A DNA stretch of 40,867 nucleotides from contig CAXHJY010001265.1 of assembly GCA_964016885.1 (NCBI GenBank), positions 1-40,867 on the forward strand, read 5' to 3'. Positions 2,204 to 36,124 of this stretch are shown here, in pieces. The translations under genes were made by a program, and so were the position numbers. A model generated the notes under the pieces. The model did not search any database. It was not told where the DNA came from and saw only the letters and a list, made by a program, of their open reading frames with translations. Positions within the stretch are counted from its first letter, which is position 1. Each line of letters begins with the position of its first letter. The DNA is from Eledone cirrhosa (taxonomy: Eukaryota).

Positions 2204-2248
2204 AACGATGTACTAGTTTCAAGCTTGTTAGCTATCATCAGCACCGTT
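2204..2248 (-). ncRNA. Minimal type I hammerhead ribozyme motif (family E)
   Basis: Minus strand reads AACGGUG-CUGAUGA-UAGCUAACAAGCUU-GAA-ACUAGU-A-CAUCGUU: 7-bp stem I, AGCU/AGCU stem II (U.U at base), palindromic stem III, GUA cleavage triplet. Confidence 0.8.
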
Positions 2249-2366
2249 TACCCATCTGCCAGATAGTTGAACGTTCGAAAGTATATACTTTCCTTATGAA
2301 AATTAACGGCTGAGCAGCCCAATTTGCATATTGAGTGAGTTAAATCGGTCAGGCATACCGAAAACG

Positions 2367-2600
2367 ATAAGTTGAAAAAAAATGAAAACGAAATTTCATT
2401 TCTCACTCTTAGTATGGCACTTACTTAAATGTAAGTATGTATGTATACGTACATACATATATGTATACAGACGTACAGTAGCATGCACACATATATACAT
2501 ATACATATATGTATGTACGTATACATACATACTTACATTTAAGTAAGTGCCATACTAAGAGTGAGAAATGAAATTTCGTTTTCATTTTTTTTCAACTTAT
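2367..2600. repeat. Perfect inverted repeat (101-bp arms, 32-bp loop) abutting (TA)n
   Basis: 2367-2467 is the reverse complement of 2500-2600. Confidence 0.95.
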
Positions 2601-3177
2601 ATATATATATATATATTTATATATATATATATATATATTTATATATATATTTATATTTATATATATATTTATATTTATATATATATTTATATATATATAT
2701 ATATTTATATATATATATATATATTATATATATATATTTATATATATATATTTATATATATATATATATTTATATATATATATATATTTATATATATATA
2801 TTTATATATATTTATATCTATATATATATATATTTATATATATATTTTTATCTATATATATATATTTATATATATATATATATTTATATCTATATATATA
2901 TATTTTTATATATTTATATATATATATATTTTTATATATTTATATTTATATATATATATATATATATTTATTTATATATATATATATTTATTTATATATA
3001 TATATATATATTTATTTATATATATATATAAATTTATTTATATATATATATATATATATAAATTTATTTATATATATATTTATATATATATTTATTTATT
3101 TATATATTTATATATATTTATTTATATATATTTATTTATATATTTATATATTTTTATTTATATATTTATATATATAT
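2598..3177. repeat. Interrupted (TA)n tract
   Basis: TA repeat with TTTA interruptions. Confidence 0.97.
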
Positions 3178-3541
3178 TTTGTTATACTTTGGGAGGGCCA
3201 TGTTGCCAATAAGAAACACACGCACCGGTTGCTTTCACTTCAATTTATTATAATAAATTTATAATAAATTTATAATTTTCTGGTTGGTTGGTTGGTTCCA
3301 CAACCAGATAGTTGTTTATATATTGTCATAGTTCTTTCGTCAAACACTCTGTGACCTCTTCAGTGACTGGGGATTCCTTTCTTTGTTTCTGTGCCTCTCC
3401 TTTGTTCTGTCCTACGCCATTTTGTTTCTGTCCTTTTTTTGTTTCTTATTGGCAACATGACCCTCCCAAAGTATAACAATATCGATTTTAACACACGATT
3501 TCAGATAAAGAATCTTGCTAAACAAATTCAGAAACGAAATA
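3178..3541. mobile_element. Truncated Penelope-like element (family A), 3' region with an inverted terminal segment
   Basis: 3178-3430 matches 5850-6100. 3440-3541 is an inverted copy of the 3' end plus a ~60-bp extension matching 5788-5849. Flanked by (TA)n on both sides. Confidence 0.8.
3325..3367 (-). ncRNA. Minimal hammerhead ribozyme motif (family A)
   Basis: GUCA-CUGAAGA-GGUCACAGAGUGUUUGAC-GAA-AGAACU-A-UGAC. Confidence 0.65.
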
Positions 3542-32619: not shown

Positions 32620-33296
32620 CGAATCCAGTGCATTACTGGTACTTTATTTTATCGACCCCGTACGTATGAAAAGCAAGGCTAATGTTAAATTTTCTTTTAC
32701 TTTTTGGTATTTAAAATACGTTCATCTTATGGTTAACTTAAAATAAGAGATAGACACAAACATTAATAAAAAATTTAACATTTGTTGGAAATTGTTTGTT
32801 CTTTCAAAAAGCCGCACAGAATGGCATCGGAGGCCGCAGATCCCCCATCTTTGTTCTAACCAGTCAGTCAATACACCAACACACTGATTTAGGCTCAAGG
32901 CCAATAATTTGGGTACTTTATTTTATCGACTCCGTAAGGATGAAAGGCAAAGCTAACCTCGGCGGGATTTGAACTCAGAACGTACAGGGCCGTAACTATA
33001 TGTTGCGGATGGTATTAAGGCTGTGAATTGGCAGTTGTTAGAGCTTGGTGGTCCGACCCTCTACCGATACCGATCATCCACTGCCCTTTATCAGTAGATT
33101 ATAGATAATTGTTTCTAATTTAGGCACAAGGCCAGCAAATACCCAGTGCATTACTGGTACTTTATTTTATCGACCTCGTAAGGATGAAAGGCAAAGTCAA
33201 CCTCGGCGGGATTTGAACTCAGATCGTAAAGGGACTTAACTATGCTGGAAAGCATGGCGTCCGACCCTCTACCGATACTGCCAATCCACCTGCCAA
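32620..33296 (-). mobile_element. Cluster of three minus-strand SINE copies
   Basis: Copies at ~32620-32680, ~32890-33087 and 33110-33296; the last has TSD tagattatagataat (33095-33109 / 33297-33311). Confidence 0.88.
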
Positions 33297-33835
33297 TAGA
33301 TTATAGATAATGATTAATAATTTGTATTGTGTAAATATTTCTCTCAGGTTGAGCCGTGTTTCTTGGTTTGTGTCAGTCTTTGCGCTTACGTAACTAACAA
33401 CACACTTTGTGTATGCCACCGCAAGCAACAACGTTTTGTTTCTTTGTTTATTTATTCAGAACTATTTATTCTGAACGCAGAAGATCATATTGTTTATTGC
33501 GCAATATTTTATGATGAGTAATGCTAACATGACCGAACACTGGTCAGTTTTTCTTTCAGTTAAGGATTTTTGGTGCGCGTGTGCGCGCGCACTTAACAAG
33601 TGGTACAATGTGCTTTTGAGCAAAATACTTTAATTTCATATTGTTGAAAATGAGTATCATCGTCAGCAGTAGCTTTAACCCAAGCCTTTTTTTAAAGGAT
33701 CACGAAGGGTGACAACTCTATCGTTGACGTTATATCCTCTCGTGTCCTTGGCAAAACGCCACATGTTGCAAATGTCCTTTATCCTAAATCTCTTAAAAGA
33801 ATCTCTATCATTTTTTTTTTGCTCAACATTATTTA

Positions 33836-35080
33836 TTCTCTCTCTCACCCCCTATCTCTTCCTTTCTCTCTCTCCCCTCCCTATCTCTTCCCTCCCTATC
33901 TCTTCCCTCCCTATCTCTTCCTTTCTCGCTCTCCCCTCCCTATCTCTTCCCTCCCTATCTCTTCCTTTCTCGCTCTCCCCTCCCTATATCTTCCTTTCTC
34001 GCTCTCCCCTCCCTATCTCTTCCTTTCTCGCTCTCCCCTCCCTATCTCTTCCTTTCTCGCTCTCCCCTCCATCTCTCTTCTTTTCTCTCCACCTCCATCT
34101 CTCTTCTTTTCTCTCCACCTCCATCTCTCTTCTTTTCTCTCTCTTTCTCTTCCTTTCTCTCTCTTTCTCTTCCTTTCTCTCTCTCTCTCTGTCTCCCTTT
34201 CTCTTCCTATCTGTCTCCCTTTCTCTTCCTTTCTCTCTGTTTCCCTTTCTCTCTGTCTCCCTATCTCTTCCTTTCTCTCTCTCCCCATCTCTCTCCACTC
34301 TCTCTTCCTTTCTCTCTCTCCCCATCTCTCTCCCCTCTCTCTTCCTCTCCCCATCTCTCTTCCTCTCCCCATCTCTCTTCCCTCTCTTCCTCTCCTCATC
34401 TCTCTTCCCTCTCTCTTCCTTTCCCATCTCTCTCTCTCTTCCTTTCCCATCTCTCTCTCTCCCCCTATCTCTTCCTTTCTCTACCTTTCTCTCCCCCTCT
34501 CCTCCCCATCTCTCTTCCTCTCTCTTTCTCCCCATCTCTCTTCCTCTCTCTCTTCCTCTCTCTTTCTCCCCCTCTCTCTTCCTTTCTCCCCCCTCTCTCT
34601 TCCCTTCTCCCCCCTCTCTCTTCCCTTCTCCCCCTTCTCTCTTCCTTTCTCCCCCTCCCCTCTTCCTTTCTCTCTCTCTCTTCCTCCCCCCTCTCTCTTC
34701 CCCACACACACTCTCTCCCCCCCCTCTCTCTCTTCTCTCTCTCTCTCTTCCCCATCTCTTCCTTTCTCTCTCGCTCTCCCCCATCTCTTCCTTCCCCCCA
34801 TCTCTTCCTTTCTCTCTCTCTCCCCCCACTCTTCCTTTCTCCCACCCCCCTCTTCCTTCCCCCCACCTCTTCCTTTCCCCCACCTCTTCCTTTCTCTCCC
34901 TTTCTCCCCCCCCCATCTCTTCCTTTCTCCCCCCCCCATCTCTTCCTTTCTCCCCCCCATCTCTTCCCCTCTCTCTCTCTCTCCCCCCCATCTCTTCCTT
35001 TCTCTCTCTCTCTCCCCCATCTCTTCCTTTCTCTCTCTCCCTCCCTCCCCTTATCTATTCCTTTCTACCCCCCCCCCCCT
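33836..35080. repeat. 1.25-kb homopyrimidine/homopurine minisatellite
   Basis: Variants of ctctcccctccctatctcttcctttctcg; almost only C/T on the + strand. Confidence 0.97.
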
Positions 35081-35407
35081 CGAGGTTTTTTGAAGCCTGC
35101 TGTATATTTTATCAATCTCTTCTCGATTCACTAAGGTCGGGAGATTGTGAACGAGGGCATTGGAGGTCTCTGACACGACAGCACGACAAGGAAGCGGTTG
35201 GTCAAGTCCCGGTATTTAGATATCTGTTGTTACTTATTTTAAGGCTCACGCGACAATTTTAGGGGACTGAATGGGGTGCAACTTTATATGAAAGTAAACA
35301 TAGTTGATATTTAGTTGGGGTCAGTAGACATGGGTGGTGATGGTATGTGATTGTGTACGAACTAAAAACATTGTTTTGTTTGTGTGTATGTACGTGTGTA
35401 AACACAG

Positions 35408-36124
35408 AACAAACAAAACGGAGTCATTATACATAGTTAGGTCCACGATATATATATCAAATGTATATATTGAGTTAGAAACTCAATAGTCTCTTACAAT
35501 AAAATAGCTCTGGGAAAGAGATTTTTCCGAGCTGTATTTTATAATTGAATATAAAAGAAAAAGAACACAGATATATACATATGTGTTCAAATAGTAAGGG
35601 ACCAGATTCGCTCAGGTTAAAAGAATACTAACTATAGACAATAGGGTTTGCCAGCCTCAATTTAAGAATAAATCAAGAAAATAAATACAAACCGGAATTG
35701 TGGTAACTACCAATCACCCAGACAGCTTTGGTAATGCTGTTTCGCAAAATTAATTGTGAAGAGGAATACCAATTCTTGCTCATCAGTGGGTGAAGAATTA
35801 GTATCCTGGACACTTCTAAGTATATTAAAAAACTGAATAGTGTGCGTATATATAATAACGCACATGGTATCGGAACATAGCGTGTCCCACAAACTCACAC
35901 CACTAAAAATTGCAGCCAGGTTTACTCGACATTTGAATTAGCTCAACAAATTAACGGAGCCGATTATATCAAAGGTAAATATTGAGTTAGAAACTCAAAA
36001 TAGTCTCTTACAATAAAATAGCTCTAGGAAAGAGATTTTTCCGAGCCGTATATTATAATTGAACACATATGCATATATCTGTGTTCGTTTTTCTTTATAT
36101 TCAAATAGTAAGGGACCAGATTCG
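35408..36124 (-). mobile_element. Retrozyme-like / non-autonomous PLE-like 1.3-mer
   Basis: Direct repeats 35467-35610 and 35979-36124 (period ~512) enclose a canonical hammerhead; no coding signal; ends at (TA)/(GT)n. Confidence 0.65.
35708..35803 (-). ncRNA. Canonical full-stem type I hammerhead ribozyme
   Basis: UACUAA-UUCU-UCACCCA-CUGAUGA-GCAAGAAUUG...CAAUUAAUUUUGC-GAA-ACAGC-AUUACCAAA-GCUGU-C-UGGGUGA-UUGGUA. All core nucleotides, GUC triplet and three stems are present. Confidence 0.92.

Follow-up and report, generated by a model that had tools for sequence, protein, structure and literature searches.

Hammerhead Ribozyme Motifs in Eledone cirrhosa: Probable Remnants of Penelope-Like Elements and of Non-coding Units With the Same Integration Footprint

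Hammerhead Motifs and Their Insertions in the Window

The DNA analysed here (the window) is a 40.9-kb contig of Eledone cirrhosa, in which a first-pass annotation had placed ten hammerhead ribozyme motifs of about five families, in or near (TA)n microsatellites. All ten type I motifs were found at the positions given for them, which are their left edges, and five families were likewise counted: family A (3325, 5997, and 6840), family B (8073, 28535, and 29071), family C (21961 and 22088), family D (2204), and family E (35708). Because the motifs at 5997/6840 and at 21961/22088 are mirror arms, they represent eight insertions and not ten. Eight of the motifs are the 3′ pseudo-long terminal repeat (pseudo-LTR) ends of Penelope-like elements (PLEs; families A, B, and C), and two lie in non-coding units (families D and E).

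The motifs were evaluated with a descriptor consisting of stem I, CUGANGA, stem II, GAAA, stem III, and UH, whose relaxed form permits one unpaired base before stem II. The strict type I descriptor matched the window 7 times, compared with a mean of 0.005–0.01 in 3 × 200 dinucleotide shuffles, and in the shuffle comparison that had been proposed as a check the relaxed descriptor gave 9 matches against 0 in 200 shuffles (blocks of 500 nucleotides, nt). The bare CUGANGA word was little enriched (19 in the window versus ~14 in shuffles); since this word is near chance while the whole descriptor is far above it, the hammerhead signal comes from the stems. Nine of the ten motifs have the CUGANGA and GAAA cores, NUH, and three helices in type I order. 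The cores had all been described as intact, which does not apply to the motif at 6840(+), where A replaces G at 10.1, pair 10.1–11.1 (the first of stem II) is lost, and the descriptor fails. The stems are generally complementary, as described, except that stem II at 3325 holds a U·U mismatch. The proposed Rfam check did not bear the motifs out: no hammerhead family was among the 84 matches of the window at E ≤ 1, which were microsatellite-driven and below the gathering score. Minimal hammerhead forms outside the Rfam models may explain this. The output of a repeat finder on the window was dominated by (TA)n.

The families have in common a target of (TA)n, an arm in inverted orientation, and a long as well as a short 3′ end at fixed positions, each followed by (TA)n. 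The window does contain several retroelement families that bear hammerheads and target (TA)n. Family A forms a minus-strand stump at 3181–3540, composed of a minus arm (3431–3181) running to the short end and an inverted arm (3440–3540) with a 63-nt tail that represents the start of the open reading frame (ORF). Its minimal hammerhead (3325–3367, minus) has a 4-bp stem I, an unpaired G before stem II, the stem II mismatch, stem III AGAACU, and CUA, with the predicted cut after 3329. The second family A insertion (5789–7024), with (TA)n on both sides, consists of head-to-head 5′-truncated arms that are 92.6% alike, the left one running to the long end and the right one to the short end. It carries minimal hammerheads at 5997–6039 (minus; CUU, predicted cut after 6001) and 6840–6882 (plus; the G10.1-to-A form). 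Positions 6420–6656 (plus) encode the last 78 codons, that is, the C-terminus, of the GIY-YIG endonuclease domain (97% to the long frame in locus L022), and a mirror copy lies on the minus strand at 6221–6421.

A family B-related stump with an inverted arm (8045–8248) holds hammerhead B′ (8073–8137, minus; stem I 8 bp, stem III AUAUGUAU, AUA, predicted cut after 8081); this one is flanked on its left by (CACG)n and not by (TA)n. Family B itself is represented by a single minus-strand arm running to the long end (28473–28602), with an internal deletion in its tail and hammerhead B at 28535–28598 (minus; stem I 8 bp, palindromic stem III AUAUAUAU, AUA, predicted cut after 28543), and by an inverted insertion (29027–29351; short end left, long end right) whose hammerhead has a CUGAAGA core (29071–29134, minus; predicted cut after 29079). 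At the inversion junction of the latter, the hammerhead 5′ half is triplicated in tandem (57-nt copies, 29105–29255), as if by repeated template jumps. Family C forms a palindrome at 21920–22189 with arms 95.6% alike, in which the two 3′ ends meet centrally, an unusual layout; its hammerheads lie at 21960–22022 (plus; stem I 12 bp, stem III AUAUGUAU, AUA, predicted cut after 22010) and, in the mirror arm, at 22087–22149 (minus; predicted cut after 22099). Another inverted family C stump (28768–29011; long end left, short end right), missed by the first-pass annotation, is cut off inside stem II, so that only the hammerhead 3′ half remains.

The family D insertion (1915–2600, minus) has (TA)n on both sides; its main minus arm ends at the short end near 1923, and its inverted arm (2500–2600) ends at the long end. 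Hammerhead D (2204–2248, minus) has a 7-bp stem I, a 4-bp stem II, the palindromic stem III ACUAGU, and GUA, with the predicted cut after 2211. The family E element (35452–36107, minus) is made up of a 606-nt arm, longer than its 519-nt unit, with the long end near 35458, and a short inverted piece (36059–36107). Hammerhead E (35714–35793, minus) combines a 7-bp stem I and a long stem II with GUC; its predicted cut falls after 35721, and the 5-bp hairpin of its stem III might allow folding as a monomer. The palindromic stem III ascribed to such elements was seen in families B, C, and D, but AGAACU of family A is not a palindrome. No A-to-G editing signature was found in 18 window arms set against the family majorities.

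Protein-Coding Copies of Families A, B, and C

A genome search with family A gave 25,207 candidates, a figure that is not a copy number, and the 150 that were scored are 90–100% identical. Long frames of up to 833 amino acids (aa), present at eight loci, contain a reverse transcriptase (RT), a CX4CX2C linker, and, at the C-terminus, an endonuclease (EN) of the GIY-YIG type, and in 7 of these 8 loci the hammerhead lies ~200 nt downstream of the stop. The RVT_1 match of family A was weak (E 0.0008, below the cut-off), and a relative of family A matched Pfam GIY-YIG; Pfam returned no family for the 84-aa window frame or for the family A N-terminal frame. The best named relative of the protein comes from Octopus vulgaris (67%). 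In a tandem copy at L026, the 3′ end continues into the start of the next ORF, which is the pseudo-LTR arrangement, and the 63-nt tail of family A is therefore coding sequence. The linker CIDKKCITC and the motifs NCK..RC and EH..QH would make family A a Neptune-like (or Nematis) PLE, with which it shares the RT, the CX2-5CxxC linker, the C-terminal GIY-YIG domain, the CCHH Cys and His residues, and a tandem copy whose tail is the ORF start; it differs in that DKG reads DKS, the clade being assigned by motif. Young PLE frames (96% identical copies) are present in the genome and could serve for testing trans-mobilisation.

In longer copies, the hammerhead lies ~1.0 kb (family B) or ~1.4 kb (family C) behind the RT/GIY-YIG frame. 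The pseudo-LTR arrangement was also seen in family B, where the frame at L149, with VKSDKT and RWRAF, stands between two hammerheads; its linker reads CNCRIKSNC, and the CxxC/CxH C-terminal motifs and the ORF end are contained in L045, which was translated by eye. Pfam on a family B frame returned no family. Family C was seen as broken frames spanning the RT end and the EN, with CNCRNKTDC, CALCTME, and SCLH, and is 43–66% identical to family B in the better pieces. Both have a CxCX5C linker, CxxC and CxH around conserved E and N, and no CCHH, and family B (L149) also has DKT and an RWK-type motif. By the motifs of Craig 2021 (PMC8557442; this and the other papers are cited from their accessible text), families B and C would belong to the Hydra clade, for which a (TA)n target and hammerheads are described. 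They resemble it in the C-terminal EN, DKT, the RWK-like motif, CxCX5C, CxxC, CxH, the (TA)n target, the canonical hammerhead, the inverted 5′ copy, and the tail, whereas the tails described there measure 30–40 bp and those found here 78–99 nt. Hydra-1_Obim, a Hydra family of Octopus bimaculoides, is already listed (PMC8557442); since its hammerhead is unlike those of B and C, the latter are other families.

A sixth family, F, which the first-pass annotation had missed, occurs in the window at 12803–12945, 12984–13146, 28641–28726, and 4753–4900, as short inverted stumps with a hammerhead 3′ half (GAAA, 5-bp stem III, and GUC). Its few long copies have a variant core, UUGANAA or CUGAGAA; a U3-A8 core variant is described in PMC4209133. 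In 51 of 61 copies, the alignment to one reference extends no further back than −4 to +7 of a loop II site, and some of the 51 may be other subfamilies that diverge at this site. An inverted Hydra-type RT piece, read by eye, was seen upstream of family F at L035. The 5′ ends of family B also pile up, 12 of 45 arms beginning 124–132 nt upstream of the cut site. We take the 5′ points of families B and F to resemble the initiator consensus TCAKTY, and the short copies of both may be complete reverse transcripts, running from their own transcription start to internal priming sites.

Non-coding Families D and E

Elsewhere in the genome, the family D unit is 466 nt long and mostly forms head-to-tail arrays of 466–508-nt units with up to 11 motif-bearing units; five arrays contain 3–11 consecutive ones. 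The copies are 98–100% identical across chromosomes, and the hammerhead of each unit has the stem III palindrome ACUAGU. No PLE protein match was found inside the D and E units, and the longest ATG frame of D has 112 aa of low complexity. As tandem non-coding units with one type I hammerhead each, family D qualifies as a non-LTR retrozyme under the published definition (PMC7229834; Li 2026, 10.64898/2026.07.22.740005). Family E has a 519-nt unit, a full stem III, and GUC; its copies exceed one unit with one motif per arm, and its motif was not seen in direct tandem in 30 loci of 3.2 kb. Lacking consecutive motif-bearing units, family E falls outside the retrozyme definition, though it works like one. 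The earlier suggestion of short non-autonomous derivatives thus fits D and E, but the eight other motifs belong to 5′-truncated autonomous PLEs.

Compared with published retrozymes (PMC7229834; Li 2026), family D agrees in being non-coding, AT-rich, and head-to-tail with a palindromic stem III, in a genome that also contains PLEs. The differences are that the units here measure 466–519 nt against ~170–400 nt published, that family E was never found with two hammerheads in tandem, and that the PLE inversion and two-end footprint seen here goes unreported in the accessible text of both papers. In the family D insertion at L157, the inverted arm alone is 1.8 units long, a length that speaks for a multimeric or circular template. 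PLE frames were found in 7 of 63 D and E loci and were neighbouring insertions where inspected (L090, L092, L101, and L115).

An array related to family D, with a period of ~422 nt, spans the entire genome piece L358:1-10000 (G000:C28:110,000,001-110,010,000), and 15 of its units pass the descriptor. In two loci, L318:2349-4950 and L319:1379-4800, a junction at a nearly equal RT position connects family E to one Hydra family; in L318, the inverted arm is an E long end, and the direct arm runs to an apparent Hydra short end. A hammerhead-like motif with a CAGAAGA core forms the end of this Hydra family. The junction is possibly a helper link, or a deletion between neighbours. Cross-family chimeric inversions were set aside as a pointer to a helper, being too few (2 versus 167 same-family junctions, with loci not fully merged); one of the 2 joins family E to a Hydra element, and deletion between neighbours also explains both.

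A Shared Integration Footprint

Families A, B, and C show the traits of EN-bearing (EN+) PLEs, namely 5′ truncation, an inverted 5′ copy, and an optional tail; for PLEs, published work describes inverted copies as well as a tail on one of the ends (PMC8557442). The long and short 3′ ends are spaced by 63 nt in family A, 92 nt in B, 99 nt in C, 60 nt in D, 86 nt in E, and 78 nt in F. The ends were counted in inverted insertions with both ends recognised and flanked by TA, drawn from 29 loci each for families A, B, and C (picked by the long end), 15 for D, and 26 for E. A long end was paired with a short end in 70 of 72 such insertions, two long ends in none, and two short ends in 2. By family, the long-short pairs amounted to 16/16 (A), 11/11 (B), 11/12 (C), 5/5 (D), 7/7 (E), and 20/21 (F), and the evenly spaced genome pieces described below gave 11/11, in part from the same insertions as the family F count.

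That families D and E follow this rule (12 of 12) is the best evidence here for their insertion by PLE enzymes, and it favours the view that PLE enzymes carry these units. A helper link between PLEs and retrozymes has been proposed on other grounds (PMC7229834; Li 2026, 10.64898/2026.07.22.740005). A literature search on cephalopod hammerheads and on a retrozyme inversion/tail footprint, covering few subscription papers, returned nothing beyond the papers cited here. For Poseidon of Anolis, the accessible text of PMC11167929 describes, in vitro, a tail between two internal RT start sites and the cutting and extension of both target strands. The present elements appear to resemble Poseidon in the two internal RT start sites bounding the tail, in an AT-rich target cut on both strands, in uncut RNA as the template, and in the family A tail, which is the ORF start in L026. 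The difference is that no strand difference in start site is described there, whereas here each inverted insertion uses one of each site.

Abundance in the Genome

To place the window in context, 79 evenly spaced 10-kb pieces of the 3.0-Gb genome were searched with the relaxed descriptor. They contained 65 motifs in 19 clusters, compared with 0–1 per shuffle (five shuffles, 0.79 Mb). The density of 82 motifs per Mb (bootstrap 95% 44–132; 15 of the 65 came from one array) extrapolates to ~250,000 hammerhead motifs genome-wide (130,000–390,000), a number at which hammerhead matches in cephalopod DNA are background and not discoveries. Motif density in the window is 2.7 times the genome mean, and (TA)n tracts are twice as frequent there as usual; with P ~0.07 for 9 or more motifs in 40 kb, the window is within the genome spread, so the locus is rich yet ordinary. 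A hot spot was rejected on the density spread across the 79 pieces, and the special co-colonisation of this locus supposed earlier does not hold, the genome as a whole being of a similar kind. Among the 65 sampled motifs, 60 lie within 400 nt of (TA)6, versus 40% of random positions. Of 62 minimal stems III, 50 are fully self-complementary, in nine different sequences, even though the descriptor required only two pairs, which suggests selection in master lineages.

Proposed Mechanism and Alternative Explanations

We consider it highly probable that the ten motifs are the truncated ends of three PLE families (eight motifs) together with retrozymes likely inserted by a PLE enzyme (two motifs), all bearing the PLE footprint in (TA)n. 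By analogy with Poseidon biochemistry (PMC11167929), a PLE protein, probably dimeric, would nick both strands of the TA repeat and prime one cDNA at each of two internal RNA sites, and both cDNAs would stop early and join head to head. The RNAs of families D and E would supply such a pair of priming sites and would be copied from templates longer than one unit, either a tandem transcript or a circle. Ribozymes with a palindromic stem III would cut as dimers or with protein help, trimming or circularising RNA, and the inserted RNA template would be mostly uncut or re-ligated. The role of the hammerheads is likely occasional RNA processing or circularisation, and that of single genomic hammerhead stumps is probably nil.

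Hammerheads in PLEs and retrozymes are already published (Cervera 2014, 2020; Craig 2021; Frangieh 2024; Li 2026). Taken as a whole, the combination of the most hammerhead-rich animal genome counted (~250,000 motifs, at least 19 families), a coupling of two-site priming, PLE enzymes carrying retrozymes, and a tail length pointing to the helper clade has, in our judgement, about even prospects of being right. If it is, one complex primes both target strands, one per RNA site, so that each inverted insertion has one long and one short end, and the tail length names the helper clade: ~60 nt in D, like family A, and ~86 nt in E, like the Hydra families. From the one-long-one-short rule follows a sharp prediction about how the PLE integration complex works. 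For animal retrozymes, a helper has so far been proposed from co-occurrence and sequence trees only, and here young arrays carry the PLE footprint.

The minimal PLE hammerheads of Cervera and de la Pena 2014 (PMC4209133) are matched in the type I order, in family A's short helix I (4 bp), its long helix II, and the unpaired base that precedes its stem II, in the palindromic helix III of families B and C, in opposite-strand pairs 100–700 bp apart, and in mostly single motifs from truncated PLEs. They are not matched in the longer stems I of B and C (8–12 bp), in the absence of a palindrome from A, or in number, ~2.5 × 10^5 being estimated here against 4,000–9,000 minimal motifs in coelacanth and Xenopus.

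Several results weigh against our interpretation. The lowest-energy monomer fold differs from the hammerhead in all ten motifs, by 2.7–7.5 kcal/mol, and stem III of family A, with a self-duplex of +1.4 kcal/mol, is unable to form dimer pairs. Of 87 arms, just 1 begins within 5 nt of the predicted cleavage site, at which the 5′ ends show no peak; the arm starts at −862, −679, −143, and −93 are artefacts of indels in the reference, the arms in question extending further, and, as the ends of inverted arms in this test are confounded by (TA)n, the end pairing was taken from the separate end analysis. The arrays of D and E end 185–310 nt from the cleavage site. Picking A, B, and C by the long end means that only long-long versus long-short pairs were tested in those families. 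No match of >16 nt was found between D or E and the PLE 3′ regions, which leaves no sequence link to a given PLE. The array at L162 alternates two unit variants and that at L358 fills its whole 10-kb piece, both equally explained by DNA-level expansion, and later growth of arrays at the DNA level may have taken place there. Finally, the 3′ ends of the family C palindrome point inward, opposite to the usual layout and not seen among the other family C genome matches; a secondary duplication by fold-back could have produced it, or an artefact of the assembly.

Several of these points would suit hammerheads that are largely passengers, kept in the masters for a step other than integration or hardly active, with inert relics as genomic copies; this is a real possibility, to which we incline slightly less than to its opposite. 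Copy ends avoid the cleavage site, and 73 of 96 motif-covering arms still pass the descriptor, as neutral decay would give. Published cutting is weak, dimer-dependent, or protein-assisted (PMC4209133; PMC11167929; Li 2026): according to the accessible text, minimal PLE hammerheads cut weakly (PMC4209133), hammerhead mutants had no effect on PLE insertion in vitro (PMC11167929), and cutting was seen in 1 of 9 retrozyme dimers from Xenopus (Li 2026, 10.64898/2026.07.22.740005). On the opposite side, the core and stems are kept in at least 19 sequence clusters, and the nine palindromic stems III point to selection in the masters; family E moreover has a full stem III and GUC.

It is unlikely that D and E are satellite-like repeats that arose from the terminal remnant of a PLE through unequal crossing-over, a route discussed by Li 2026 (10.64898/2026.07.22.740005), with no multimeric or circular RNA template. 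The L358 array and the alternation in L162 fit such growth, but arrays on several chromosomes stop at two identical unit positions beside (TA)n and pair a long with a short end, the inverted arm at L157 holds more than one unit, and unit identity across chromosomes is as high as 98–100%. Expansion after insertion may have added further units. Still more improbable is that D and E are the 3′ ends of protein-coding PLEs whose long copies lie outside the sampled loci: the screen with three PLE proteins covered no more than 63 loci, and a Hydra frame directly adjoins two E loci, but upstream of the hammerhead both units enter their own long end (466- and 519-nt period), and in L318/L319 the Hydra frame is downstream of E, with a 3′ region of its own at its end. 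Chance matches in DNA rich in AT and in microsatellites, with which the frequency of the CUGANGA word and the Rfam result would agree, are refuted virtually beyond doubt by the shuffles of the window and of the genome sample and by the membership of every motif in a dispersed family.

Other Repeats of the Window

A 524-nt tandem non-coding family adjoining (TA)n occurs at 25375–25989 of the window and at L157:350-1560. Its half-core repeat contains CUGACGA and a first stem II arm resembling that in the hammerhead of another family, without the GAAA half. In addition, an abundant, dispersed, and partly tandem repeat of ~190 nt was found at 9019–9620, 21190–21390, 27035–27620, 31777–33300, 36990–38370, and 39756–39945, and is presumably a tRNA-derived short interspersed nuclear element.

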